Of a DNA stretch of 64,000 nucleotides, positions 40,360 through 56,987 are shown piece after piece. Where the stretch lies: NCBI RefSeq assembly GCF_002854065.1, contig NZ_CP024147.1; one strand, given 5' to 3'. This DNA is from Escherichia coli. Lineage in GTDB: Bacteria > Pseudomonadota > Gammaproteobacteria > Enterobacterales > Enterobacteriaceae. The position numbers were made by a program, and so were the translations under genes. Every line of letters begins with the position of its first letter. Position 1 is the first letter of the stretch. The notes under the pieces were generated by a model that was not told the origin of the DNA, ran no database searches, and was given only the letters and a program-made list of their open reading frames with translations.

Positions 40360-40444
40360 GCCGAAGTGGCGAAATCGGTAGACGCAGTTGATTCAAAATC
40401 AACCGTAGAAATACGTGCCGGTTCGAGTCCGGCCTTCGGCACCA
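40360..40444 (+). tRNA. leuX: tRNA-Leu (anticodon CAA)
   Basis: GCCGAAGTGGCGAAATCGGTAGACGCAGTTGATTCAAAATCAACCGTAGAAATACGTGCCGGTTCGAGTCCGGCCTTCGGCACCA: cloverleaf with long variable arm, anticodon loop tTCAAaa, 3' CCA. Confidence 0.95.
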
Positions 40445-40481: not shown

Positions 40482-40642
40482 GTGCCTGAAATCCAGTATC
40501 CGCAAGGCTTTCCTCGCTTTTTCACTCAACCTAAGTCAACCTGATTCAATTTACATCAACTTACTGATGCGGGTACAACTGCGGGTATATCGCGGTTCGA
40601 TAATGTTTGTACCCACACAGAACCCTTGAAAGGATACTCATC

Positions 40643-41899
40643 ATGGCTCTGAGTGATGTGAAGGTTCGTTCGGCTAAGCCTGAAGCAAAAGCCTATAAAC
40701 TTACTGATGGTGACGGTTTGGTTTTGCTGGTTCACCCGAATGGCTCAAAATACTGGCGGCTGCGTTATCGTTTTGGCGGTAAGGAGAAGATGCTGGCGCT
40801 TGGGAAATACCCTGAAGTGTCGCTGGCGGATGCCCGGGCACGCCGGGATGAAGCTCGTAAGCTGTTAGCTAATGGCGTCGATCCCAGTGAGAACAAGAAA
40901 GCCGTTAAGGTAGAGCAGGAGCAAGAGGCGATAACGTTTGAATTGGTTGCCAGAGACTGGCACGCCAGCAATCAGAAGTGGTCTGCATCGCATAGAGCTC
41001 GAGTATTGAAAAGCCTCGAAGATAATCTCTTTGCTGCTATCGGTAAGCGGAACATTGCAGAACTGAAAACGCGAGACCTACTTGTACCCATCAAAGCGGT
41101 GGAATCATCCGGGCGACTCGAAGTCGCCGCCCGTTTACAGCAGCGAACTACTGCGATTATGCGCTTTGCCGTTCAGAGCGGCTTAATCGACTATAACCCC
41201 GCACAAGAGATTGCCGGTGCGGTAGCTACGGCGAAAAGACAACATCGTGCTGCTCTGGAACTTAATCGCATTCCTGAATTACTTCACCGCATTGATCACT
41301 ATTCTGGCAGGCCGTTAACTCGACTGGCGGTTGAACTCACTTTGTTGGTTTTCATCCGTTCAAGCGAGCTGCGTTTTGCTCGCTGGTCAGAAGTGGATTT
41401 TGATACTGCCATGTGGACGATTCCAGGGGAGCGTGAACCGCTGGAAGGCGTTAAACATTCTCAGCGTGGTTCAAAGATGCGGACTCCCCATCTTGTTCCT
41501 TTGTCGCGGCAGGCTCTGGCTATTTTGGAAAAGATCAAAAGCATGAATGGGAGCCGTGACCTGATCTTCGTAGGAGATCACGATCCGCGTAAGCCAATGA
41601 GTGAGAATACGCTTAATAAGGCCTTGCGAGTAATGGGCTATGACACGAAAACGGAAGTGTGTGGGCATGGTTTCAGGACGATGGCGTGTAGCTCATTGAT
41701 TGAATCGGGTTTGTGGTCGAGAGATGCGGTGGAAAGGCAGATGAGCCATCAAGAGCGTAGCTCTGTGCGTGCGGCGTATATTCATAAGGCGGAACATTTG
41801 GGAGAACGCAGGTTGATGCTGCAGTGGTGGGCTGATTTTCTTGATGCAAATCGTGAGAAGGCGATGAGTCCATTTGATTTTGCCAAACTTAGGCGGTGA
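40643..41899 (+). CDS. intB: P4-type (IntB-like) tyrosine integrase at the leuX island border
   Basis: About 418-aa ORF with N-terminal DUF4102-like region (KAYKLTDGDGLVLLVHPNGSKYWRLRYRFGGKEK) and C-terminal HGFR/Tyr recombinase motifs; immediately 3' of a tRNA gene. Confidence 0.88.
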   Translation: MALSDVKVRSAKPEAKAYKLTDGDGLVLLVHPNGSKYWRLRYRFGGKEKMLALGKYPEVSLADARARRDEARKLLANGVDPSENKKAVKVEQEQEAITFELVARDWHASNQKWSASHRARVLKSLEDNLFAAIGKRNIAELKTRDLLVPIKAVESSGRLEVAARLQQRTTAIMRFAVQSGLIDYNPAQEIAGAVATAKRQHRAALELNRIPELLHRIDHYSGRPLTRLAVELTLLVFIRSSELRFARWSEVDFDTAMWTIPGEREPLEGVKHSQRGSKMRTPHLVPLSRQALAILEKIKSMNGSRDLIFVGDHDPRKPMSENTLNKALRVMGYDTKTEVCGHGFRTMACSSLIESGLWSRDAVERQMSHQERSSVRAAYIHKAEHLGERRLMLQWWADFLDANREKAMSPFDFAKLRR

Positions 41900-42229: not shown

Positions 42230-45200
42230 ATGGATGCTTTAAGGGCTACAACATCGACAAATTTCAGTTTTCTCGCTGAACATGACCCGCTGTTTCTACA
42301 AATCGCCACTGCTGCAGAAAACGCCTTCTCAGGCGATCCCAACACCACCTTGATTAAGTTGCGCCAACTAGGTGAAGCCTTAGCACAACATATTGCTGCG
42401 CTGGTCGGGATCACGTTTGATGAACCGCCCACTCAGGCTGATTTACTCTACCGCCTCAATCGCGAGCTAAAATTTGAACCCACGGTACTCGAGCTATTTC
42501 ATCTATTGCGGATAGAGGGCAACAAGGCCACTCACCAGTTCAAAACCAAGCACAAAGAGGCGCTAGATGGCTTAAAAGTGGCGCGAGCGCTAGCTATCTG
42601 GTTCCACCAATCTTTCGGCAAGCAGGGCGCGGCCTTTAAACCCGGCGCTTTTATTGCTCCTCCAGACCCGAGCAATCAGCTTAGGCAACTCCAAACGGAA
42701 ATCGATCGCCTCAAAAGTGAGCTCACTACCGCCAACATACAGCTAGATTCCAGCCAACAGCTGCAAAATTTGCTGGTGCAGGAAAAGAGTGAATATGAAG
42801 CGCTGGCGTTAGCCATGGATGATGAAACTAAGGTGTTAGCATCGCAGGCGAAAGAGCAGGAAATTGCACTCGAACAGCTTCGACAGCAATACGAAGAAAA
42901 ATTAAAAATCCTGCAAGCGCAACTGACCGAAAAAGATGAAAAGCAGGCCCGAACACAACGGCGAGAGTTTGCCCAGAAGAGCCGCCGTGCCAGCCAACAT
43001 ATCGCGTTAAATGAAGAACTCACCCGTATATTGATTGACCAAAACTTAAATGATGCGGGCTGGCTTGCTGACAGTCAGGAACTGACCTGGGCTAACGGAA
43101 CTCGCCCTGAAAAGGGGATAAACAAAGCCATTGCCGAATGGCCTACGGAGTATCAGGGTAAAAAAGGTCGCGCTGATTACGTTCTATTTTGCGGCTTAAC
43201 TCCGCTGGCCACGGTCGAAGCCAAAAAAGAAAACACCGATGTTGCGGGAAAAATTCCGCAGGCAGAACGCTACAGCAAAGGCTTCAAAATCACGTCCCCC
43301 ATGATTGGCGCATGGGAGCGGGAAGGCCGAACCATTGCATGGGCGGATGAGACTGACGGGCATTATATTATCCCGTTTGTATACTCCTGCAACGGTCGCC
43401 CCTACGTGCCACAGTTGGCTGAGTCATCAGGAACTTGGTTCCGGGACGTGCGCGAACCGTCCAACATCCGCCGTGCGCTGCAAAAGTTTCATACCCCGCA
43501 AGGCTTGCTGGATAAACTCGAACGCAGCAAAGACAGCGCCGAACAGAAGCTAAAGCAAGAAGGCTTCGCTTACCTCCGGTTACGCGATTATCAGCAAAAG
43601 GCCATTCTCGCCGTTGAAAGCACATTGGCGCAAAACATCCGCAATGCCCTTCTGGCGATGGCGACCGGCACCGGGAAAACACGCACCATTGTTGGTCTAA
43701 TGTACCGTTTTCTGAAAACTGAACGCTTCAAGCGCATCCTCTTTCTGGTTGACCGTACGGCTTTGGGCGAGCAAGCCACGGACACCTTCAAAGAAGCGCC
43801 GTTGGAGCAAAACCAGACGCTGTCTCAGATTTACAATATCGCTGAGCTCGGCGATATGGCTACACAGGCAGAAACCCGAGTACAGGTCGCGACGGTACAG
43901 GCCATGGTTAGCCGCATTTTTTCCTCGGACACACCACCGCCGGTGGATGAATTTGACTGCATCATCGTTGATGAAGCCCACCGAGGCTACACCTTAGATC
44001 AGGAAATGACTGAAGGGGAACTCTCGACCCGCGACGCCAGCCAATATCTCTCCAGCTACCGTCGGGTGCTCGATTATTTCGACGCGGTAAAAATCGGCCT
44101 TACCGCCACTCCGGCGAAACATACCAGCGATATCTTCGGCAAACCGATTTACATCTACTCCTACCGTGAAGCCGTGGCGGATGATTGGCTTATCGATCAT
44201 GAACCTCCAATCCGTTATGAAACGCTGCTGACGCAAAATGGCATCCACTTTGACAAAGGGAGCCAGGTGCATGCCATTAATATCCACACCGGAGAGGTTG
44301 AGATTGATCAGCTAGAAGACGAAGTGGATTTCAACGTTGATGCATTTAACCGTGGCGTCATCAGTGAAAACTTTAATCGGGTTATTTGCCAACAGCTCGT
44401 GAAAGAGCTCGATCCCTTTGGCGAAGAGAAAACGCTGGTTTTCTGCGTTACAGACAAACATGCCGACATGGTCAAACGCTTGCTGGATGAAGCGTTCTCT
44501 GCTGAATATGAAAACTATAATCAAGCGGCCGTCGAGAAAATCACCGGTGAAAGTGACAAAGTCAAACAGTTGATCAAACAGTATAAAAATGAACGCTATC
44601 CGAATATTGCAATCACCGTTGATTTGCTTAGCACCGGCATTGACGTGCCGAAGATTTGTAATCTGGTTTTCATGCGTCGGGTGAAGTCACGTATTTTATT
44701 TGAACAGATGATAGGCCGCGCAACACGCCGCTGTGATGACATTGGCAAAACGGTCTTCCGTATTTACGATCCAGTAGATATTTATGAGGCTCTCAGTGAC
44801 GTTAACACCATGAAACCGCTGGTCAAAGACCCCAATATCACACTTGAACAATTGGTCGGCGAGCTAACCGATACTGAACAGCTCGAAAAAGCGCTCAACA
44901 GCCCCGGTGAACATACAGGTGAAACTCAGGCTGATGTGGTGCTCAGCCAGTTAAGCCAAAAGGTGATGCGCATCCTACGTAAGGCGGAGAAACGGGCAGA
45001 AAATCGCCCAGTGGTGAAACAAAAATTGGCTGACCTCCATCAACTGTGGGGCGTTGAGCCAAAACAGCTGCATCAACATCTGCATCACTTAGGGCCGCGT
45101 CAGGCGGCAGCCTTCATCCAACAACAGCAAGGGCTAATCTGCCAGCTCAACGAGATAGCTACATTACTCGGAAGTGAATACCGGCCGATTATTTCTGAGC

Positions 45201-45754
45201 ATCATGACCAACTACAGGAACGTAACCAGAGCTACGGTAGCCATCAGCGGCCAGAAGATTACCTGGAAAGCTTTGCGGATTTTATTCAGCAGCAGCTTAA
45301 CCAATCCACTGCGCTGGCCGTGGTTGTCAACAAACCCCGCGACCTCACTCGTGAACAGCTTAAAGAGATCCGCTTATTATTAGACGGTGCGGGCTATTCC
45401 GAAGCTAATCTACAAACCGCCGTGCGTAATCAAACCAATCAGGATATCGCCGCCAGCATTGTCGGCCACATTCGCCGTGCTGCACTAGGGGAGCCTCTTG
45501 TGCCTTTTGCACAGCGCGTATCACAGGCAATGATCAACATTTATAACAGCCGCGCATGGACAACCCAGCAACGAAAATGGCTGGATCGTCTGGCAAAACA
45601 GCTGGTTCATGAAGTGATCATTGATCACCAATTTATTAACAATAGTTTTGCTGATGATGGCGGCGTAAAACAGCTCAATAAGATATTGGTAGACCAACTG
45701 GACAGCGTGCTGGATGAACTTAACGGTGCGATATGGCCACAACAAAGCGCCTGA
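42230..45754 (+). CDS. hsdR: Type I restriction enzyme R subunit (nuclease/helicase)
   Basis: 1174-aa ORF; PD-(D/E)xK-type motif (RADYVLF...VEAKK), SF2 helicase motif I (AMATGTGKT) and motif II (IIVDEAHRG); N-terminal coiled-coil segment. Confidence 0.9.
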   Translation: MDALRATTSTNFSFLAEHDPLFLQIATAAENAFSGDPNTTLIKLRQLGEALAQHIAALVGITFDEPPTQADLLYRLNRELKFEPTVLELFHLLRIEGNKATHQFKTKHKEALDGLKVARALAIWFHQSFGKQGAAFKPGAFIAPPDPSNQLRQLQTEIDRLKSELTTANIQLDSSQQLQNLLVQEKSEYEALALAMDDETKVLASQAKEQEIALEQLRQQYEEKLKILQAQLTEKDEKQARTQRREFAQKSRRASQHIALNEELTRILIDQNLNDAGWLADSQELTWANGTRPEKGINKAIAEWPTEYQGKKGRADYVLFCGLTPLATVEAKKENTDVAGKIPQAERYSKGFKITSPMIGAWEREGRTIAWADETDGHYIIPFVYSCNGRPYVPQLAESSGTWFRDVREPSNIRRALQKFHTPQGLLDKLERSKDSAEQKLKQEGFAYLRLRDYQQKAILAVESTLAQNIRNALLAMATGTGKTRTIVGLMYRFLKTERFKRILFLVDRTALGEQATDTFKEAPLEQNQTLSQIYNIAELGDMATQAETRVQVATVQAMVSRIFSSDTPPPVDEFDCIIVDEAHRGYTLDQEMTEGELSTRDASQYLSSYRRVLDYFDAVKIGLTATPAKHTSDIFGKPIYIYSYREAVADDWLIDHEPPIRYETLLTQNGIHFDKGSQVHAINIHTGEVEIDQLEDEVDFNVDAFNRGVISENFNRVICQQLVKELDPFGEEKTLVFCVTDKHADMVKRLLDEAFSAEYENYNQAAVEKITGESDKVKQLIKQYKNERYPNIAITVDLLSTGIDVPKICNLVFMRRVKSRILFEQMIGRATRRCDDIGKTVFRIYDPVDIYEALSDVNTMKPLVKDPNITLEQLVGELTDTEQLEKALNSPGEHTGETQADVVLSQLSQKVMRILRKAEKRAENRPVVKQKLADLHQLWGVEPKQLHQHLHHLGPRQAAAFIQQQQGLICQLNEIATLLGSEYRPIISEHHDQLQERNQSYGSHQRPEDYLESFADFIQQQLNQSTALAVVVNKPRDLTREQLKEIRLLLDGAGYSEANLQTAVRNQTNQDIAASIVGHIRRAALGEPLVPFAQRVSQAMINIYNSRAWTTQQRKWLDRLAKQLVHEVIIDHQFINNSFADDGGVKQLNKILVDQLDSVLDELNGAIWPQQSA

Positions 45755-45833
45755 TTCTGGTAAAATTCGCTAGCGAAACACGCCTTTTTAATCGCGCTTG
45801 CGGCATATTTCGCGAGCGAATGCAGGAAAAATA

Positions 45834-47402
45834 ATGAGTAATAATAACGATATCGTACAAAAACTGTGGAACCTGTGTGATGTACTGCGTGATGACGGCA
45901 TCAACTACAGCGATTACGTCACCGAACTAGTGCTACTACTGTTTATCAAAATGGTGCATGAAAATACCGAAGCAGAATTATTAGATCAGCACACTTTACC
46001 GCAGGGCTGCCGCTGGAGCGATCTCAACAGTTTATCGGGCCTCAACTTGCTTAACCATTACAAACAAATGCTGTTGAAGCTCTCCAGCGGCAAAGACGCT
46101 GAAGGTAATTCGGTTCATGCTGACCCGCTGATTAGCGCCATTTATGACGATGCGCAGACCCGCCTGCGTGAGCCTCGTCATCTCGAACAGATGATCCGCA
46201 CCCTCGACCAAATTGACTGGTTTAGTGCTAAAAAAGACGGTCTCGGTGATCTTTATGAAGGTCTGCTGGAGAAAAACGCCGGAGAAACAAAATCTGGCGC
46301 AGGTCAATATTTTACGCCGCGGGCCTTAATTAACAGCATGGTACGCTGCATTAAGCCACAGGCTGGAGAAGTGATCCAAGATCCCGCTGCGGGCACCGCA
46401 GGGTTTTTGATTGCCGCCGATCAATACATCAAGCAACAAACTGACAACCTCTACGACCTTACTGCCAAAGCGAGAACCTTTCAAAAAAATAAAGCCTTTA
46501 TTGGTGTGGAACTGGTTCCGTCTACGCGCCGCCTGGCACTGATGAACTGCCTGCTACACGGCATCGAAGGGGATGACGAAGGCGTCGTGCATCAGGGCAA
46601 CGCGTTGGGCATGGTGGGTGCTAGCTTGCCCAAGGCCGATATCATTCTTGCTAACCCGCCGTTCGGTACGGCGAAAGGCGGTGAAGCCAGCATTACTCGT
46701 GATGACTTAACCTACCCAACTAGTAACAAACAGCTAGCGTTTTTACAGCATATCTACCGTAACTTAAAACCGGGTGGCCGTGCAGCTGTGGTGCTACCCG
46801 ACAACGTCCTGTTTGAAGCGGGTGTTGGCACCGATGTACGCCGCGACCTTATGAACAAATGTAACCTGCACACCATTTTACGTTTACCCACCGGGATTTT
46901 TTACGCCCAAGGGGTGAAAACCAACGTTTTGTTCTTCACCAAAGGCAGCGCCAACAACAAACATCAGGATGAAAATTGTACCGAAAACGTCTGGATCTAT
47001 GATCTGCGTAGTAACATGCCAAGCTTTGGCAAACGCACCCCGTTTGGTGAGCAACATTTAAAACCCTTTGAAGCGGTTTACGGCGACGATGCCAACGGTC
47101 AAAGCCCACGCAGTGAAGGGGAATGGAGTTTTAACTCCGACAAACTTGACGTGCCCGATAACGCCGAAAATCAGCACGTTGACAACCGCATGGCGACCAG
47201 CCGTTGGCGCACATTCAGCCGTGAATGGATCCGCGATGTTAAAGGTGATTCATTAGATATTGCATGGCTGAAAGATAACAACAGCGTTGATGTGACTAAC
47301 CTGCCTGAACCTAGTGTATTAGCGATTGAAGCAAAAGAAGAATTAACCACTGCTTTAGCAGAACTGGATGCTTTATTGACTTTATTAGGAGCAACTCGCT
47401 GA
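45834..47402 (+). CDS. hsdM: Type I restriction-modification N6-adenine DNA methyltransferase subunit
   Basis: N-terminal HsdM_N-like sequence (DIVQKLWNLCDVLRDDG), motif I DPAAGTAGFL, catalytic NPPF; start at the ATG with AGGA RBS. Confidence 0.9.
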   Translation: MSNNNDIVQKLWNLCDVLRDDGINYSDYVTELVLLLFIKMVHENTEAELLDQHTLPQGCRWSDLNSLSGLNLLNHYKQMLLKLSSGKDAEGNSVHADPLISAIYDDAQTRLREPRHLEQMIRTLDQIDWFSAKKDGLGDLYEGLLEKNAGETKSGAGQYFTPRALINSMVRCIKPQAGEVIQDPAAGTAGFLIAADQYIKQQTDNLYDLTAKARTFQKNKAFIGVELVPSTRRLALMNCLLHGIEGDDEGVVHQGNALGMVGASLPKADIILANPPFGTAKGGEASITRDDLTYPTSNKQLAFLQHIYRNLKPGGRAAVVLPDNVLFEAGVGTDVRRDLMNKCNLHTILRLPTGIFYAQGVKTNVLFFTKGSANNKHQDENCTENVWIYDLRSNMPSFGKRTPFGEQHLKPFEAVYGDDANGQSPRSEGEWSFNSDKLDVPDNAENQHVDNRMATSRWRTFSREWIRDVKGDSLDIAWLKDNNSVDVTNLPEPSVLAIEAKEELTTALAELDALLTLLGATR

Positions 47403-48778
47403 TGAGTAAGATTATTCTACCTGAAGGGTGGTCCAATTGTACTCTTGCAGATATTGCTGAAGTTAACCCTAAAAAAATAGAGGCTGAACCTGACATAATT
47501 GCAGGCTTTGTTCCTATGTCTCATGCCCCAACAAACTATTACGGGAAATTAGAGTTTGAAGAAAAGACTTGGGGTGAAATTGGTAAATCTTACACTAACT
47601 TTAAAAATGATGATGTGATTTTTGCAAAAGTAACGCCTTGTTTTGAAAATGGTAAAGCAGCAATTGTAAAAGATATGCCAAATAATATCGGTGCAGGCAG
47701 CTCTGAATTTTATGTTCTACGCGCTCGTAATCAAGAGATACCAGCCAGTTATTTACTTGGGATTATTAAGACCAGAAAATTTATGCAGGAAGGTGCAGAA
47801 AATATGACAGGTGCTGTTGGTCTGCGCCGTGTTCCAAGGGCTTTCGTTGAAAGCTTTCCTTTGATACTTCCCCCTCTTGCAGAACATAAAATCATCGCCG
47901 ATAAACTCGATATTCTGTTAGCACAGGTCGAAAGCGCCAAAGCACGCCTTGAGCAAATACCACAAATCCTGAAGCGTTTTCGTCAAGCGGTGTTGGCATC
48001 TGCGGTGAGTGGAAAATTAATACCAAAGGATCAAAAGTCCAATGTACGATTTGATGTCTCAGTTGGTTCACTTTGTATAACTTCGTTTGATGGCCCTTTT
48101 GGGTCAAAATTAAAAACGGCTGATTATACAAATGCGGGTGTTCGTGTCGCTCGACTAGAAAATATTGGTCATTTAACATTTAATGATGAAAAAGAAACGT
48201 ATATCAGCGATACAAAATTTAATAGCCTAAAAGGAAATAAGCTCGAAAAGGATGATGTGTTATTCTCATCATTTGTAGATGAAGATGTTCGTGTATGTCT
48301 TTTTCCACATAACGATAAAATTTTTATAAACAAGGCAGATTGTTTTTGTTTAAGGATCAATCAAGAAATAGCATCACCAAAATATGTAGCTTTAACATTA
48401 GCAAGCAGAACTTCGTATGAACAAATTAAAGCACAGGTTCAAGGTGTAACACGACCTCGTATTAATTTAAAGACGTTAAGGTCTTTGTCGTTTACGTTTC
48501 CTTCTCTACAAGAACAAAACGAAATTGTTCGCCGCGTAGAACAACTCTTCGCCTATGCTGATGGCATCGAAAAGCAGGTACACAACGCCCTTGAGTGCGT
48601 CAACAACCTCACACAGTCGATTCTGGCTAAAGCATTTCGTGGGGAACTCACGGCGCAATGGCGTGCAGAAAATCCCGATTTAATTAGTGGTGAAAATAGC
48701 GCACAAGCATTACTGGTGAAAATTCAACAGCAGCGCAAAAACATAAAAAATATCAAACGCAACAAGGGTAATAATTGA
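47402..48778 (+). CDS. hsdS: Type I restriction-modification specificity subunit
   Basis: 458-aa ORF, start overlaps the hsdM stop (TGATG); two target-recognition-domain halves separated by conserved helical spacers. Confidence 0.85.
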   Translation: MSKIILPEGWSNCTLADIAEVNPKKIEAEPDIIAGFVPMSHAPTNYYGKLEFEEKTWGEIGKSYTNFKNDDVIFAKVTPCFENGKAAIVKDMPNNIGAGSSEFYVLRARNQEIPASYLLGIIKTRKFMQEGAENMTGAVGLRRVPRAFVESFPLILPPLAEHKIIADKLDILLAQVESAKARLEQIPQILKRFRQAVLASAVSGKLIPKDQKSNVRFDVSVGSLCITSFDGPFGSKLKTADYTNAGVRVARLENIGHLTFNDEKETYISDTKFNSLKGNKLEKDDVLFSSFVDEDVRVCLFPHNDKIFINKADCFCLRINQEIASPKYVALTLASRTSYEQIKAQVQGVTRPRINLKTLRSLSFTFPSLQEQNEIVRRVEQLFAYADGIEKQVHNALECVNNLTQSILAKAFRGELTAQWRAENPDLISGENSAQALLVKIQQQRKNIKNIKRNKGNN

Positions 48779-50481
48779 TGCGACTGATTTCTTTAGATTT
48801 GAGAGGCAGCTACAAAGGCTTGAAAGATCAATTCTTTGACTTCAGTTATGCCCAAGATAATATAATTGCATTGATTGGCCTTAATGGTTCTGGTAAATCT
48901 CAATTGCTTGAGTTAATCGGAGAAACTTTTGCTTATCTAGAGCGATGGCAACGTGCAGAGTTCAAAAATAAAACATCGTTAGGTTTTAGCGTCGCGGTAC
49001 ACTATCAATGGGATCTTAGAAATGATAGTGCTGTTATATCTTACCCAGACGAGCTCATGAATCATGGTGAGAGCATTGAGCTAAAGGTAACTATTGAGCT
49101 TGACGGCGATGTGTTTTTAAATGTTCGTGGTACTTATGAGTGGCATGTAATACAGCTTGGTGAGCGCCATTTCCCCATCCCTCTCGTGGTTGGTTATGCT
49201 TCGGGGCTAAACGAAAATTTACAGCGAAGTTTTATGAAAAATGCTGTGCAATATTTTGAAGTCCGTCGAATTAGTAGCCAGCGTCTAAAAATGCTATCAC
49301 GAGAAATTAATGATGAACAGTTGGCTGAAATCAATAAGAAGTATCTTAAAAAATACCCACACATATTTGATCCTTTATCAGAAGGTGATTTTTTTCCAAA
49401 TTATCACCTGAATTTGAGAGAAGTGAATCCTGCCCCTAGCAATTTTAACTATCTTGATTACGATAATATTGGGCTCTTAATTTTATCGCTATCGATTCTT
49501 CCGGCTGGGACAGTATTTCAACTATTAGATGAAATAACATATAAACATCCTGTCAAAGCTGTACTTCATTACGACTTTCGTTCTGGCATCATAGAAGATG
49601 ATGCCATTCGTGATGTGAAAATGTTGATCCGTATAGCAGGCTCCGATCAAGTAAGGCCAACAGGAGGCCGAACTACAGATAACCAGTATGAACTTTATGA
49701 GTTAGAATATCTGTCTGGAGAAATCACTCTCGAATTAAGTGATGAGGCTGTTTTAAACCGACTTCGTGAAGATAACTACTTTGATTCTTTCGCATTATTT
49801 AAAAGACTTAATAATATTCAACAGCTTGGCATAAAGAACTGGGATCGTACATCTCGTTTGAAATTGATGAAAGATGATTTTATAGGTACGGTAAAAAAAC
49901 CGCTTCAGTCAAGGTTACCTTTATCTGTTGTTGAGTTATTAATGGCTAATGAACAGGGCGATACCGTGAAGTTTGATGATTTATCTGACGGTGAAGCTCA
50001 ATTGATTCAGGTTGTTGCCGCAACAAGGATATTCAGTCAGGTTCAAGCGCTATTTCTTTTTGATGAGCCAGAAACACACCTTAATCCGTCTTGGCGTACC
50101 TATTTTCATCAGCGTTTAACTGAAGCATTTACACCTGGAAATGAGAGGAAAGGTCAATCGCAATTCTTTCTATCTACTCACTCACCATTCATGATTTCCT
50201 CGCTCAAACGCGAGAATGTATTTTTCTTCGAGCGTAGTGATATGGGTTGTATCAGTATGGAACCGGTGTCCAGCCAGACTTATGGCACATCATTTGATGT
50301 CTTGGTTAAGAACCACTACGGTCTGCGTTCCCTTATTTCACAGACAGTGGTGAAGGATGTTAAAAATCGATTACCAGAAGATAATAATCCTGAAGCAGTT
50401 ATAGCTGCGCGACTCTGGATTGAGGAAAATCTGGGAGAATCAATGGAAAAGGCTTATCTGCTAAGGAAACTAGATAGCTAA
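48778..50481 (+). CDS. ABC/SMC-like P-loop ATPase (AAA_15/AAA_21-like), candidate defence ATPase (Septu PtuA-like)
   Basis: Walker A GLNGSGKS near the N-terminus; signature-like LSDGEAQL, Walker B LFLFDEPETHLNP and H-loop STHSP near the C-terminus; start overlaps the hsdS stop. Confidence 0.7.
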   Translation: MRLISLDLRGSYKGLKDQFFDFSYAQDNIIALIGLNGSGKSQLLELIGETFAYLERWQRAEFKNKTSLGFSVAVHYQWDLRNDSAVISYPDELMNHGESIELKVTIELDGDVFLNVRGTYEWHVIQLGERHFPIPLVVGYASGLNENLQRSFMKNAVQYFEVRRISSQRLKMLSREINDEQLAEINKKYLKKYPHIFDPLSEGDFFPNYHLNLREVNPAPSNFNYLDYDNIGLLILSLSILPAGTVFQLLDEITYKHPVKAVLHYDFRSGIIEDDAIRDVKMLIRIAGSDQVRPTGGRTTDNQYELYELEYLSGEITLELSDEAVLNRLREDNYFDSFALFKRLNNIQQLGIKNWDRTSRLKLMKDDFIGTVKKPLQSRLPLSVVELLMANEQGDTVKFDDLSDGEAQLIQVVAATRIFSQVQALFLFDEPETHLNPSWRTYFHQRLTEAFTPGNERKGQSQFFLSTHSPFMISSLKRENVFFFERSDMGCISMEPVSSQTYGTSFDVLVKNHYGLRSLISQTVVKDVKNRLPEDNNPEAVIAARLWIEENLGESMEKAYLLRKLDS

Positions 50482-51647
50482 TGTTATTTTCACTTAATCC
50501 ACAGACGCCTCAATGTTCGGTATTTGCATTTCTTAATGCTGAATTTCTTCATTTTTTGCAAGCTACTATTAATGCTGATGTATTCTCAGAAAACTTATTC
50601 CGCACTTTTCCTGAGATGATTGAAGATACAGAAGTACTTGTCCCTAGTGTATGTTGGAGTAATGAGCCCACAAGAGAGAAATTTCTTGGGTTATGGGAAG
50701 CGCGGCCTACGACCGTTGCGCAGCGACGGGAGTTGTCAGACCAAATAAGTCAGGCTCAGGATATTAATGTATTTTTCAACAATACCCAAGCTGTATTGCC
50801 GCAATTAGTACCAGCCTCTTTATTCGAAGCATGTAAGGCGTTAACAACTCATTTGTTTACACGTACCAAAGATCTAGCTCAAGCAAAGTCACAATCCAAT
50901 AGTTCTATTGAAAAACATTATCAGAATTTCGTCAGAGAAAATAATAATAGCCATCTATGTCCTATTTGTGGCACTGCACTTCTCTCTCAAAATCGAGAAA
51001 GCGTAGCAGAGGAAGAACAATGGCGATCAGATTATGACCACATTCTTTGCAAAGATAAATATCCAGTTTACAGTGTCCATCCAGGAAACTTCATTCCGAC
51101 TTGCCATATTTGTAATAGTAAAGCTAAAGGGGCAAGGGACTTACTGAATACTGTTGGTCTCCAGAGACGATTAGCATTTTATCCACTTCCCCCATCACAA
51201 GAGTCATGTGAGCAATTTGTTGTGGTATCGCTTCACCTCAGTGACCGTAGAGATTTAATTGTGAATAGTTGGGAAACACCGTTGGAGTCAGCATCCATTT
51301 TATTCCCCAGAGCTCCAGCTGACATAGTAGATAAAATAGGTGTATGGAAAGAAGTTTATAAAGTACCAGAAAGAGTTGAACAGCATCTTAAGGTCAACTT
51401 TTGCGAGCGTATAGCCGCTGATCTACGACCAGTAAGCTTTGATGATTTCTGTGAGCAATTACATAGATATTCGAGACAAATGCCAGCAGACTATAGAAAA
51501 TCGGAATGGAGGTTTTGGTGGCAGAAAGTCTATGAATTCTTATCAGATCAAAATAGAGACTATTTACACGATGTGTGGATATTAATTGCCTGGAAATTAA
51601 GGTTATCAAATGATGCTGATATGGCTGATACGTTTAATCAAATTTAA
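50481..51647 (+). CDS. HNH-endonuclease-domain protein, partner of the upstream ATPase (Septu PtuB-like)
   Basis: Central motif CPICG...DYDHILCKDKYP...NFIPTCHICNSKAKG (CxxC...DH...N...CxxCN); start overlaps the ATPase stop (TAATG). Confidence 0.65.
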   Translation: MLFSLNPQTPQCSVFAFLNAEFLHFLQATINADVFSENLFRTFPEMIEDTEVLVPSVCWSNEPTREKFLGLWEARPTTVAQRRELSDQISQAQDINVFFNNTQAVLPQLVPASLFEACKALTTHLFTRTKDLAQAKSQSNSSIEKHYQNFVRENNNSHLCPICGTALLSQNRESVAEEEQWRSDYDHILCKDKYPVYSVHPGNFIPTCHICNSKAKGARDLLNTVGLQRRLAFYPLPPSQESCEQFVVVSLHLSDRRDLIVNSWETPLESASILFPRAPADIVDKIGVWKEVYKVPERVEQHLKVNFCERIAADLRPVSFDDFCEQLHRYSRQMPADYRKSEWRFWWQKVYEFLSDQNRDYLHDVWILIAWKLRLSNDADMADTFNQI

Positions 51648-51661
51648 ATTTTACTTCAACA

Positions 51662-51691
51662 GGGTGAGAGTATTGTTACTCTCCCTTTTTA
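51662..51691. terminator. Hairpin plus T-run between convergent HNH gene and nuclease-motif gene
   Basis: GGGTGAGAGTAttgtTACTCTCCC followed by TTTTT; overlaps the last codons of the minus-strand gene. Confidence 0.5.
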
Positions 51692-52848
51692 AAATACATT
51701 GTAGAAGGTGCGCTTATTACTACGCAACCATCAATGCCTTTTATCTTCAATACCCCTTCCTTGAATTTAACATGTTCTTGTGTTGCTCGAGTGCAGTCCC
51801 ACAGGAAGCTGATGATATACGAATCCTTATATTTTTCGTCGACACGATAAAGTGACGCATCTTCTGCAATTTCTCCTATTAGTGCAGGAAACGATTTTTT
51901 TGTATCTTTTCGGTATTTTACTTCAATAATTGTGTGCAGTGATGGCAGATAAAGGTCTATGCGGGGGTTTTTTTGTCCGACAGGCTGAAGATTCACCTCA
52001 TCTGCAATATCGTTGAATATTGGCGCAAGTAGGATATAAAGCAGATTCTGAACATGATATTCATTTTCAACTTGCCACTTTACGGGCTCTGCGCCTCTGG
52101 TTCGACCTGAGTCCTCCCATGTCCATCGTTTTAACCCTGCAGGGATATGTTCCAGAAATCCTAGCAGGTCATCCAGTGTCCATCCAGACGGTGGAGCAAT
52201 GGCAATTTCCTGATTAATTTGATTAAAAACGTAAAGCATTACACACAAGAGAGTAACTGAAGGATTTTCTGTAGCTTGTGCTTGAAATTCGCTCATGAAA
52301 CGTCCGACAAGAGAAAGTCGGTTCTGATGACTATTGATCTTCAATAACTTTCGATAATGAAGGAAGAGTGGTATGCAGGCACTACTAAAGGAGGCTGATT
52401 CGCTGTTACCGACATATGCCGCGATATCTTTCTCGAAGATACTTAGATGGTTGCTTTCAATTTGCTGAGCCAGAAACCCTGAAATCCACTTTTCGAACTC
52501 GTGATTTATGCTCTCATCTTGCATCTGTGCCGTTAGCCATTTCACTGCCATTACACCGAACATATCCGATACCCAAGGTCTCGGTGTTGAATCAATCTTG
52601 GGAGCTTGTCCGAGCAGGCGAGAGACATCCTGGACCGAGACAGTTTCATCTAGAATACCTAAACCTGAAATTGCACAGCGTTGGTATAAAGATAGGTCCG
52701 CAAAGCTAAAATTCGTAATGCAGCTTTTATCTCCTTCCAGGAGACTAAAAAAGCAGGACTTAAATGGATCAATGTGAGCGGATTCGATCACCTTACTGTG
52801 AAAATAGTCGCGTAGCTGATAAACGTTTTCTTTCTCTATAGGAACCAT
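51676..52848 (-). CDS. Predicted PD-(D/E)xK-motif nuclease, candidate effector partner of the upstream Argonaute
   Basis: 390-aa ORF; C-terminal motif ...RIDLYLPSLHTIIEVKY (D-x(n)-E-x-K) preceded by a helix with conserved Glu; start overlaps the pAgo stop by 13 nt. Confidence 0.55.
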   Translation of the reverse strand: MVPIEKENVYQLRDYFHSKVIESAHIDPFKSCFFSLLEGDKSCITNFSFADLSLYQRCAISGLGILDETVSVQDVSRLLGQAPKIDSTPRPWVSDMFGVMAVKWLTAQMQDESINHEFEKWISGFLAQQIESNHLSIFEKDIAAYVGNSESASFSSACIPLFLHYRKLLKINSHQNRLSLVGRFMSEFQAQATENPSVTLLCVMLYVFNQINQEIAIAPPSGWTLDDLLGFLEHIPAGLKRWTWEDSGRTRGAEPVKWQVENEYHVQNLLYILLAPIFNDIADEVNLQPVGQKNPRIDLYLPSLHTIIEVKYRKDTKKSFPALIGEIAEDASLYRVDEKYKDSYIISFLWDCTRATQEHVKFKEGVLKIKGIDGCVVISAPSTMYFKKGE

Positions 52849-53175
52849 TGTGAATGCCCTATTTTTCCAATCATGACTGAGTCACTCCAGCCCGGAAGCT
52901 GATTCAACCATCCTAAATTATGGGCGATAAGATCGGAATAAGTGATGGTAACTGGCATGGGATTGGGGAAGTAACTACGCCAGGAGTGTGATGCGAAACT
53001 GTAGAGCTGAGCACTCAAATACTTAATATCTTTGAAGGTCGAGTCTTTATGAACGTTGACGATCACACCACGTGGATGACCGTCCGTTTCTTGTCGTAAT
53101 TCACGTTGGCCGATCAGGTAAACAAGCATTTCGTTTTTAGAAAGCTTAAACGTATTTCCGCGATGTGTCGCCAGG

Positions 53176-53180
53176 CGTCC
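53176..53180. repeat. IS2 target-site duplication, left copy (CGTCC)
   Basis: Identical 5 bp directly flanking both IS2 ends. Confidence 0.85.
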
Positions 53181-53271
53181 TAGACTGGCCCCCTGAATCT
53201 CCAGACAACCAATATCACTTAAATAAGTGATAGTCTTAATACTAGTTTTTAGACTAGTCATTGGAGAACAG

Positions 53272-53637
53272 ATGATTGATGTCTTAGGGCCGGAGAAACG
53301 CAGACGGCGTACCACACAGGAAAAGATCGCAATTGTTCAGCAGAGCTTTGAACCGGGGATGACGGTCTCCCTCGTTGCCCGGCAACATGGTGTAGCAGCC
53401 AGCCAGTTATTTCTCTGGCGTAAGCAATACCAGGAAGGAAGTCTTACTGCTGTCGCCGCCGGAGAACAGGTTGTTCCTGCCTCTGAACTTGCTGCCGCCA
53501 TGAAGCAGATTAAAGAACTCCAGCGCCTGCTCGGCAAGAAAACGATGGAAAATGAACTCCTCAAAGAAGCCGTTGAATATGGACGGGCAAAAAAGTGGAT
53601 AGCGCACGCGCCCTTATTGCCCGGGGATGGGGAGTAA
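53272..53637 (+). CDS. insC: IS2 OrfA (InsC, HTH protein)
   Basis: 121-aa sequence [26 protein letters not shown]... recognised as IS2 InsC. Confidence 0.9.
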
Positions 53638-54500
53638 GCTTAGTCAGCCGTTGTCTCCGGGTGTCGCGTGCGCAGTTGCACGTCATTCTCAGACGAACCG
53701 ATGACTGGATGGATGGCCGCCGCAGTCGTCACACTGATGATACGGATGTGCTTCTCCGTATACACCATGTTATCGGAGAGCTGCCCACGTATGGTTATCG
53801 TCGGGTATGGGCGCTGCTTCGCAGACAGGCAGAACTTGATGGTATGCCTGCGATCAATGCCAAACGTGTTTACCGGATCATGCGCCAGAATGCGCTGTTG
53901 CTTGAGCGAAAACCTGCTGTACCGCCATCGAAACGGGCACATACAGGCAGAGTGGCCGTGAAAGAAAGCAATCAGCGATGGTGCTCTGACGGGTTCGAGT
54001 TCTGCTGTGATAACGGAGAGAGACTGCGTGTCACGTTCGCGCTGGACTGCTGTGATCGTGAGGCACTGCACTGGGCGGTCACTACCGGCGGCTTCAACAG
54101 TGAAACAGTACAGGACGTCATGCTGGGAGCGGTGGAACGCCGCTTCGGCAACGATCTTCCGTCGTCTCCAGTGGAGTGGCTGACGGATAATGGTTCATGC
54201 TACCGGGCTAATGAAACACGCCAGTTCGCCCGGATGTTGGGACTTGAACCGAAGAACACGGCGGTGCGGAGTCCGGAGAGTAACGGAATAGCAGAGAGCT
54301 TCGTGAAAACGATAAAGCGTGACTACATCAGTATCATGCCCAAACCAGACGGGTTAACGGCAGCAAAGAACCTTGCAGAGGCGTTCGAGCATTATAACGA
54401 ATGGCATCCGCATAGTGCGCTGGGTTATCGCTCGCCACGGGAATATCTGCGGCAGCGGGCTTGTAATGGGTTAAGTGATAACAGATGTCTGGAAATATAG
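53595..54500 (+). CDS. insD: IS2 OrfB (InsD, DDE transposase; expressed as an OrfAB fusion by -1 frameshift)
   Basis: 301-aa ORF overlapping insC in the -1 frame; DDE integrase-core-like sequence. Confidence 0.9.
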
Positions 54501-54511
54501 GGGCAAATCCA

Positions 54512-54516
54512 CGTCC
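54512..54516. repeat. IS2 target-site duplication, right copy (CGTCC)
   Basis: Identical 5 bp directly flanking both IS2 ends. Confidence 0.85.
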
Positions 54517-56987
54517 TTTCGACATAGTCGCCGTTGAAGAGTCGAACATGTGGAGTCCGTGATTCTCTGAGATTTTTACGAAGGCATACTCGATCTGATA
54601 ATCTCTATACTTGTCGATTACCGCACGGACTGCCTGAATCTCTTCCTTATTGAACTTTTTGACTTGTACATGGAAAATTAAGCGAATCGTATCGCCTTTC
54701 TGCCAGTTCATTCGCCTTTGTATTTTTTCTATATTCTCGGCCAGAACAGAGGTTAGAGCGTCGCAGTAAGCTTCCGGTACAACGGCTTTGGACGTACTCG
54801 AGACAATGTAACTACCGTCTCCCGAAAATACGGTGGTGATTCCCATAATGCGCTGATTATGGGCACCACGCTCTTGGACTATATTTGCACTGCCAATACC
54901 GATCACGAGTTCATGGGATAGTGTTGGCGATGATTTGAGTAGCCACGGGACTCCACCCATCTTCGCATAGCAGGCCAGTGACATGTTATTAAGCGAGTAG
55001 CCGAGTGAATAATCAGACTGCGTTAGCAGCTCTATTGTGAAATCCTGTACAGGAACTTGGTGCAAGTAAAATAGGCTTTTACCAAGATAGTAAGGATTAT
55101 CAGCAACTTTGAGTTTTTTAAATGACTGCCGCACCTGTACGAGGGCCAGATCCCAACGTCCTCCTTCATCAGCTTTTTTGCGTATTGCAGCTTCGATGGC
55201 ATTTTTGTATGCATCGACGCTGTCTGTGGATGTTTCGAACACTTCAACACGACTGGTTCCAAGTGCAAATTTACCCTCAAGGCCATTTCTGAAATATTTG
55301 CTATTAGCAATGCCTTTCAGAAGCTTACGGACGAACTGCTCGACTCGCCCTTTGTCATGTTGGGCGCAGATCACGCAGATTGATGGATCGTTCCTATCGA
55401 AGGTACGCTTTGTATAGGGGCCATTTTGTGTAAGACCCTTCTCAGTCCAATCTGCTTCACCGTTATCGTTGAAGACGAACACCGGCTTTTGCATCTGTGC
55501 ACAATCTTTTTGAATATCGGATGGATCCTCAATTTCGATACGCGTTCCATCGAGCAGCGAGATGTTTGTCGCTTGGATATACTTCTTAAGGGCGTCGATG
55601 CGGTCTTTTTTATTCTCGCCTCCGTTGAAAATGGAAACGGACTGCCGAATATGTTCGACAATGGAGTCTTTCTTCGTACCATGCGTATGAAGGATGTAGT
55701 CGTCAAAATTAGCTCGACTAGCTTCGAGATAAACGTCTTTAGCCTCAGCATGAACTGCTTGGCCGTCGGGACGAATGACACTCAGAGTTCTCCCTTCGTG
55801 GCAGCTTTCTACAAACCCTAAAAGTTTTCTAAATCCGTCGTCCTGCTCGGTGACGACGTAGCGACCAATAACATTGAATCCGGTTTTTAGGAAAAACAGG
55901 CAGTTCTCTTTTACTACACGACGTGTTGAGCAATCAATTATAAGACACGGCTGACCTTGGACAGTACGAGTGTCGATTGAATACTTGGCACAAATTTTTA
56001 AGGGATAAGCCTCACCAAGAATTGAGGCTAAAAGATTGTCTTTTGGTTTGGCACTTACCACCTCGATAGGATTGAAGCCGCAAGGAGTTCGACCCAATCC
56101 AGCGAAGTGCTTGAGCAGACCATCTTTAACCAGAGAGCAAAAGGTTCCCAAATTATCCTTTAGTTGCAGTGTCTGCGGTGTACCAGGTTTGGGGAACGTA
56201 CCATCACTCGAAAAAATCTGAATATTGTCACCCTGACGCCGGAAGACGTGCGTCACTTTATGGGAGGAGCGGAGGCTATCTAGAGTCGTCTTGTCGTAGG
56301 GGATCTGGACAAATTTCAACTCCAATTCAGGGATTTTCAGTGGAAACGCATTCAGGACAATCGGCAAGACCCACCCCTTTTGTGTTAGTGAAAAATCCAA
56401 CATACTGCGTCTCGATAATTATTCCCAGTCAGGGATGTGCTGGCACCTGACTGGCGCTCGCTGTGGGTTCCCTCCATCCGACTCTGGAAATAACTGTTTC
56501 AACAATTAATTTTCCTACACTGTAGCGTAAATTTTCTTAAGGCTCCCAAAGCGATTATTTAACTCTTTAAACTAATCTAATGTAAAGACTAGGGAAATGA
56601 TACGAGTGTAGTCTATGTCTTCGCTGTGATGAGGATCTATTCTTCGGTGTACATAGGGGTACTTAAGTTCCGATATAACACTCAACCAGCCTAAATTACA
56701 TCTGCAGGATCTCATGATTAAAATGATCTATGTGGTAGGTCATTAAATGGAGTAACCGGTCTCTCATAGGCAGGCGTAAGCCACCCCTGAGGGGCAGACA
56801 GATGCCATGCAGTTGAATGGTTTAAAGGGTTTGAGAGGGTGATAGTGCTGCGGTTGTCACACTATAGAGTTCTGGCGTAAAAACAGTCAGGCATCTCGGC
56901 ATTTATCAACTCGTCCAACGCTCCTCTGAAATTTGCGGGATCGGTTTAGTTTCAGGTGGGGGCGCTGAGGCCCCCGATTTATCGTAC

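Follow-up and report, generated by a model that had tools for sequence, protein, structure and literature searches.

The locus described here raises the question of what kind of gene has been split by a complete copy of the insertion sequence IS2, and of what this insertion has done to the system to which the gene belongs. The window, by which we mean the whole stretch of DNA analysed, is 64,000 nucleotides long and comes from Escherichia coli (NCBI RefSeq assembly GCF_002854065.1, contig NZ_CP024147.1). The split gene lies on the minus strand and encodes a prokaryotic Argonaute (pAgo). Directly downstream of it is an intact gene for a PD-(D/E)XK effector DNase, bAgaN, of 390 amino acids (aa; 51676-52848, minus strand). 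We find that the locus is best explained as an EcBPAN locus, the name under which the E. coli EcAgo and EcbAgaN pair was studied by Song et al. (2023, Nat Commun 14:6970; PMC10620215), in which an IS2 insertion has inactivated the sensor gene EcAgo, and we would give this reading a probability of roughly 0.93. The gene family, this protein and its mechanism have already been described. The feature that is specific to this window is the IS2 allele only, which was not found elsewhere in the collections searched.

The first step was to put the gene back together. In silico removal of positions 53181-54516 leaves a single minus-strand open reading frame (ORF) of 2232 nt, with 743 codons and a stop, whose protein reads ...STATMSKG/RLATHRGNTF... 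across the junction. The 5' part of the gene (codons 1-629; 54517-56403, minus strand) encodes N/L1/PAZ*/L2, MID and the first part of PIWI, and the 3' part (codons 630-743 and the stop; 52836-53180, minus strand) encodes the end of PIWI with D712 and the C-terminal ...SQWFL. Both halves match contiguous parts of one model, the NCBIfam argonaute model of 759 positions, of which the 5' half covers 171-632 and the 3' half 646-759. The motifs YAKMGGVPW (479-487), ELVIGIGSAN, IRLIFHVQ and PMPVTITYSDLIAH are all present in the reconstructed protein. These results agree well with the original prediction, which had proposed that the minus-strand ORFs flanking a complete IS2 with a 5-bp target duplication rejoin in frame to 743 codons, had listed a series of Piwi signature motifs, every one of which we recover, and had allowed that the two halves might turn out to be unrelated genes, which they are not. 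Its wider claim of a long pAgo defence gene broken by an insertion is supported as well, and can be refined to a long-B, inactive sensor that has bAgaN as its effector. The ATG start of the gene lies at 56403-56401 (minus strand), with an alternative TTG start at codon 13 (56367-56365, minus strand) that is preceded by AAGGGGTGGG. The TTG is probably the functional start, giving a protein of 731 aa, because Song et al., who noted two possible starts for 743 and 731 aa, argue for the latter (PMC10620215) and because the EcAgo chain in PDB 23wq begins at codon 13.

The element that interrupts the gene is a complete IS2 of 1331 bp (53181-54511, plus strand), which lies antisense to the Argonaute gene and has TAGACTGGCCCCC as its left end and GGGGCAAATCCA as its right end. 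CGTCC direct repeats abut both ends. The left copy (53176-53180) forms codons G630 and R631 of the intact gene, so that the insertion point is at codons 630-631, and the right copy is at 54512-54516. The two transposition proteins, TnpA/InsC (53272-53637, 121 aa) and TnpB/InsD (53595-54500, 301 aa), are full-length matches to the NCBIfam IS2 models, with 276 bits (cutoff 229) and 728 bits (cutoff 597), and their overlap contains the A6G -1 frameshift site (53589-53595). Imperfect terminal inverted repeats are found at 53190-53222 and 54471-54503. Length, TnpA/TnpB, frameshift site, inverted repeats and 5-bp duplication are thus all those of IS2 of the IS3 family, and the completeness of the element and its target duplication, both claimed beforehand, were borne out. 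As the allele now stands, a disrupted ORF of 689 aa (54334-56403, minus strand) consists of Ago residues 1-631 and a 58-residue tail, which is translated from the antisense strand at the right end of IS2 and ends in VWA and a stop. Its product lacks the final 112 PIWI residues, and with them D712 and the conserved C-terminus. A further ORF of 159 aa (52836-53315, minus strand) starts at a GTG within the IS2 left end and runs in frame into the Ago 3' fragment. This ORF is very likely not a gene, and gene callers may label it as a small 'Piwi-like hypothetical protein'.

Uninterrupted alleles in other Escherichia genomes, which the original prediction had suggested looking for, were found. A megablast search of 5426 complete E. 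coli genomes with the bAgaN/Ago-3' segment returned E. coli VTB96935v (NZ_CP178662.1) as the only carrier of this DNA, and in this genome the gene is uninterrupted and annotated as "argonaute/piwi family protein" (WP_197986481.1). The reconstructed Argonaute is identical to that protein at 743 of 743 residues. At the empty site of VTB96935v, ...GCCAGGCGTCC/TTTCGACATAG, CGTCC occurs once, which is precisely what the in silico excision predicts. The window is collinear with the VTB96935v chromosome, with identities of 99.87% and 99.98% on the two sides of the IS. The exact 743-aa protein is present on 355 contigs, which are labelled E. coli and multispecies Enterobacterales, and the 90% cluster of the Argonaute holds 300 member sequences, from Enterobacter, Klebsiella, Cronobacter and Pectobacterium. 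Looking from the side of the nuclease, the exact bAgaN protein has an intact 743-aa Ago upstream and the same island context in 7 of the 7 contexts shown (24 contigs read). The repaired operon of 3765 nt has 100.000% DNA identity to three intact loci (L009, L011 and L013) and differs by one base from the others compared. Since the repaired operon matches intact copies at every base, the insertion is recent and was followed by no further decay. The disrupted 689-aa product has no exact match on record in the protein collection searched, and the 38-nt IS2/Ago junction has none in 100,044 species-representative genomes.

Comparison with solved structures identifies both proteins. The best match of the reconstructed Argonaute is EcAgo of PDB 23wq, over 731 residues with 1684 bits and 3 substitutions (99.6% identity). 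It is followed by the Rhodobacter sphaeroides Argonaute (RsAgo), with an E-value of about 1e-70 over residues 163-743, and then, far weaker, by AfPiwi from Archaeoglobus. The bAgaN protein matches EcbAgaN of the same structure with E=1.9e-260 and 867 bits, with 11 differences in 390 residues (about 97%), and its active site, ...RID298LYLPSLHTIIE309VK311..., is conserved. D298, E309 and K311 are the residues mutated in the published dead bAgaN variants (PMC10620215). In PADLOC the bAgaN protein is an Aga_Helical-REase of class II (E=3.7e-132), with no TIR, Sir2 or other effector families among its PADLOC matches. At its start, bAgaN shares 13 nt (52836-52848) with the stop region of Ago. The locus therefore shows what characterises a BPAN, an Ago gene directly upstream of, and in one operon with, a gene for an og_15/RecB-like PD-(D/E)XK nuclease with D298/E309-x-K311 intact. 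Plasmids of Shewanella, Fibrella and Methylococcus show the same order of Ago followed by nuclease, their partner proteins being about 380-390 aa long, and in Hymenobacter the gene downstream of Ago is shorter, at 876 nt.

In its intact form the system is an abortive-infection device that acts against plasmids and senses DNA by means of an RNA guide. Purified EcAgo brings with it 5'-phosphate small RNAs that mirror the transcriptome. It prefers a 5'-phosphate RNA guide, binds only complementary single-stranded DNA as target and cleaves nothing by itself (PMC10620215). The complex of EcAgo, guide and target strongly stimulates non-specific DNA degradation by EcbAgaN, and co-expression of EcAgo with bAgaN causes a 279-fold loss of viability that depends on the bAgaN active site, with little viability effect of bAgaN alone (PMC10620215). 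The system is triggered by the CloDF13 plasmid origin, with loss of the plasmid from surviving cells, and protection against T5, T7 or lambda-vir was not observed (PMC10620215). Experiments by others on near-identical proteins thus show how the intact system works. EcAgo, without the PIWI catalytic aspartates and with its YK-type 5'-phosphate pocket in MID, loads 5'-phosphorylated small RNAs from the transcriptome. Pairing of the guide with complementary single-stranded DNA, for example that of a CloDF13-type plasmid origin, makes EcAgo switch on bAgaN, which degrades DNA indiscriminately, and the invaded cell dies and the plasmid disappears from the population.

In this strain IS2 transposed into codons 630-631 and duplicated CGTCC, a step that can be read directly from the DNA. 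The resulting 689-aa product, without the last 112 PIWI residues and with 58 junk residues, would be expected neither to fold nor to load guides. In AfPiwi, TtAgo and RsAgo the C-terminal carboxylate helps to coordinate the metal ion that holds the guide 5'-phosphate, and the Ago C-terminal carboxylate lost here would normally complete this guide 5'-phosphate/Mg2+ pocket. Translational coupling into bAgaN would probably be lost too, and transcription of bAgaN would have to cross 1.3 kb of antisense IS2, at the left end of which a consensus scan found no outward promoter. Defence would then be off, with bAgaN staying behind as a harmless orphan. An orphan copy of this kind is plausible because bAgaN alone is tolerated.

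Four points weigh against this account of the locus. The first is that the sensor being non-functional, and BPAN activity being lost, are predicted from the truncation. The second concerns the expression of bAgaN, on which a consensus promoter and terminator scan of 51500-56900 gave nothing clear to settle its transcription, since promoter-like sites numbered 7 against 8.1 expected from shuffled sequence and terminator-like sites 5 against 5.2. The third is that the activation step is not fully described in the literature consulted, because PDB 23wq contains 8 EcAgo and 8 EcbAgaN chains, which implies a higher-order complex, whereas no stable Ago-bAgaN complex was obtained by pull-down in the 2023 paper (PMC10620215). 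A literature search for a paper describing PDB 23wq returned nothing beyond Song et al. 2023 and its preprint, apart from a reference-list entry that proved to be a false match. Finally, an assembly artefact is formally conceivable, though the perfect 5-bp duplication argues for real transposition.

If the insertion broke a working EcBPAN system, one may ask whether the knock-out was selected. A plasmid that triggers BPAN, such as one with a CloDF13-type or other high-copy origin, or some other triggering element might have been kept only by cells carrying a knock-out, and the IS2 allele would then be an escape from Argonaute autoimmunity. We consider this unlikely. EcBPAN does kill carriers of CloDF13-origin plasmids, with survivors losing the plasmid (PMC10620215), the event is recent and has no secondary decay, and shortened variants of Ago and bAgaN are frequent in the 90% clusters, which suggests recurrent loss. 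On the other hand, only a single allele was observed, the window holds chromosome only and so gives no view of the plasmids of the strain, IS2 hops often and neutral hits are common, and the shortened cluster members may partly be fragments from contig ends. Knock-out of a defence gene by IS2 is an ordinary event in E. coli, and compared with other cases of gene inactivation by this element the anatomy here is the same and nothing is unusual; only the target gene is of interest. A weaker variant of the idea of selection would have the intact orphan bAgaN retained for another role. As for the shortened variants, the bAgaN 90% cluster contains a 291-aa form, found on 92 contigs of Klebsiella pneumoniae, and E. 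coli forms of 295 and 282 aa, and Ago fragments of 621 and 179 aa are found in the 90% cluster of that protein. This suggests that the system is often degraded in Enterobacterales, though some of the short forms may be contig-end artefacts.

The class of the Argonaute was examined through its domain content and catalytic residues. Pfam finds Piwi with E=5.4e-11 over residues 444-718, and the PADLOC pAgo_II profile matches with E=9.6e-293 over positions 2-724 of 724. The Pfam search of the reconstructed protein gave no PAZ, MID or ArgoN match. Of the Piwi, MID, PAZ and N domains that the original prediction had proposed to search for, then, Piwi was matched, the PAZ and MID regions have only their alignment to RsAgo, TtAgo and EcAgo behind them, and the N-terminal lobe is backed by the PADLOC profile and the PDB sequence matches. 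The presence of the N-terminal lobe is indicated by the length of the protein (743/731 aa) and the full coverage of the 724-position profile, with the reservation that the RsAgo alignment begins only at residue 163 and that there is no Pfam PAZ match. About 430 residues lie N-terminal of MID and align to long pAgo profiles. The catalytic tetrad was examined in a MAFFT alignment of TtAgo (plasmid pTT27), the window protein and four plasmid-encoded relatives (28-82% identity); the TtAgo reference residues 478/512/546/660 were confirmed as D/E/D/D. TtAgo D478 corresponds to G504, E512 to E544, D546 to no acidic residue and D660 to D712, and whichever register is chosen for the strand of the third Asp, IRLIFHVQVKKF, it offers no acidic residue. 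The pocket for the guide 5'-phosphate is kept, as NPYY, K442, Q453 and K481 align to TtAgo K422/Q433/K457 and to NPY..K..Q..K of RsAgo. At the C-termini, Leu743 aligns with Val685 of TtAgo.

The hallmarks of long-B pAgos are a PIWI domain that lacks the DEDX tetrad in all of them and a YK-type MID motif (Ryazansky et al. 2018, PMC6299218), and EcAgo was placed among the long-B pAgos by Song et al. 2023 (PMC10620215). The protein encoded here has a MID-PIWI core, no canonical DEDX tetrad and a YK-type 5'-phosphate motif, and it is a long-B, catalytically inactive pAgo that works as a sensor and not as a nuclease. That it could be a catalytically active long-A Argonaute, a stand-alone DNA-guided slicer, is extremely improbable. 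The full length of 743 aa with a Piwi domain would suit such an enzyme, and E544 and D712 supply acidic residues at two positions of the tetrad of four. However, Gly504 stands in place of the first catalytic Asp and the strand of the third is without an acidic residue, so that an intact DEDX is excluded by the alignment, the closest solved relative besides EcAgo is RsAgo, a long-B pAgo (E=1e-70), all long-B pAgos are without the tetrad (PMC6299218), and EcAgo cut neither single-stranded nor double-stranded DNA in the published cleavage assays in vitro (PMC10620215).

A short pAgo/APAZ system (SPARTA, SPARSA or SPARDA) or a chance in-frame join of unrelated ORFs would have in its favour only a Piwi domain adjoining a nuclease-like gene, and is hardly credible: the protein aligns end to end with the 724-position long pAgo profile and the 731-aa EcAgo and so is not MID-PIWI only, its partner is a 390-aa helical-REase protein encoded downstream and not an upstream APAZ fusion, which bears out the original prediction on this point, and the join is not by chance because an annotated, intact protein with exactly the reconstructed sequence is present on hundreds of contigs and the exact empty site was seen.

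It is useful to compare the inactivated EcBPAN of this strain with the systems already known. The closest is the published EcBPAN itself (PMC10620215; PDB 23wq), which has the same genes, with 3 differences in 731 residues for Ago and 11 in 390 for bAgaN, the same operon order with Ago upstream and a stop/start overlap, the same inactive tetrad and the same bAgaN catalytic residues D298/E309/K311. The differences are that in the window Ago is broken by IS2 at codons 630-631, with the system predicted to be non-functional, and that the published work used synthetic intact genes on plasmids. The prototype of the long-B pAgos, RsAgo from Rhodobacter (Cereibacter) sphaeroides (PDB 5awh, 6d8p and others), aligns over residues 163-743 as described above, and shares a G in place of D at position one of the tetrad and the FH strand at position three, the YK-type MID pocket, the C-terminal RWFL/QWFL and the use of RNA guides against DNA targets. 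It differs in its N-terminal part, of which about 160 residues cannot be aligned by sequence. The NCBIfam match of the window protein is 232 + 87 bits against an equivalog cutoff of 700, and because it falls below this cutoff the window Ago belongs to a different subfamily from RsAgo. We know of no description of RsAgo acting through a bAgaN-type effector. The short systems SPARTA, SPARSA and SPARDA and the long-B systems BPAS and BPAM follow the same logic, in that a dead Argonaute with a 5'-phosphate RNA guide senses DNA and unleashes a toxic effector (PMC10620215). Compared with these, the effector here is a separate PD-(D/E)XK DNase and not a TIR, Sir2 or membrane protein, and the Ago keeps its N-terminal lobe and has no APAZ partner.

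The defence cluster sits in an island beside tRNA-Leu(CAA) (40360-40444), which is followed by a P4-type tyrosine integrase (40607-41899). The GC content of the island is about 45%, against about 50% in the upstream core. A second copy of the tRNA-Leu 3' end was not found within the window, and the far boundary of the island was not located. A type I restriction-modification operon follows (hsdR 42230-45754, hsdM 45798-47402, hsdS 47402-48778), and directly after it comes a gene pair (48775-51647, plus strand) that is convergent with bAgaN. The first gene of the pair encodes a 568-aa AAA ATPase, with a PADLOC match to PtuA (5e-44) and a match below cutoff to the NCBIfam 'restriction system-associated AAA' model TIGR04435, and the second encodes a protein of 388 aa with weak HNH-like matches to PtuB/PDC-M62B/PDC-M01B (3e-12). 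From these matches the pair looks like a Septu-like module. Each of the intact BPAN loci fetched (L007-L013) has such a Septu-like pair beside a restriction-modification operon. A VOC-family gene (about 56988-57380, minus strand), located just past the Ago promoter region, is broken into the short ORFs 56988-57179 and 57176-57340. In VTB96935v this gene is annotated as a pseudogene with an internal stop, and it is a second decayed gene in the island. Outside E. coli, the Shewanella putrefaciens plasmid pSA70-2 (CP078039.1; L003 6016-9368), which is conjugative (MOBH/MPF_F), carries an 82%-identical Ago, misannotated as 'lipase chaperone', and a 390-aa partner. BPAN therefore travels on conjugative plasmids, though it is reported to target plasmids.

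The importance of these findings beyond annotation is small, as the defence system, here in a pseudogenised copy, has already been published and its structure solved. For annotation, the two Ago fragments should be recorded as a single EcAgo pseudogene disrupted by IS2, and the "hypothetical protein" downstream of them should be named bAgaN. In inventories of defence systems this strain ought to count as BPAN-negative, even though tools that seek only a Piwi domain and a nuclease may call the system present. As a natural null allele that differs from the wild type by the IS alone, the locus is a possible isogenic control. The IS2 allele could also count as a single observation on the rate at which abortive-infection systems disappear. 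If the knock-out was indeed selected, this allele would, together with the many truncated forms of Ago and bAgaN in Enterobacterales, record in nature what abortive infection by long-B pAgos costs in fitness.

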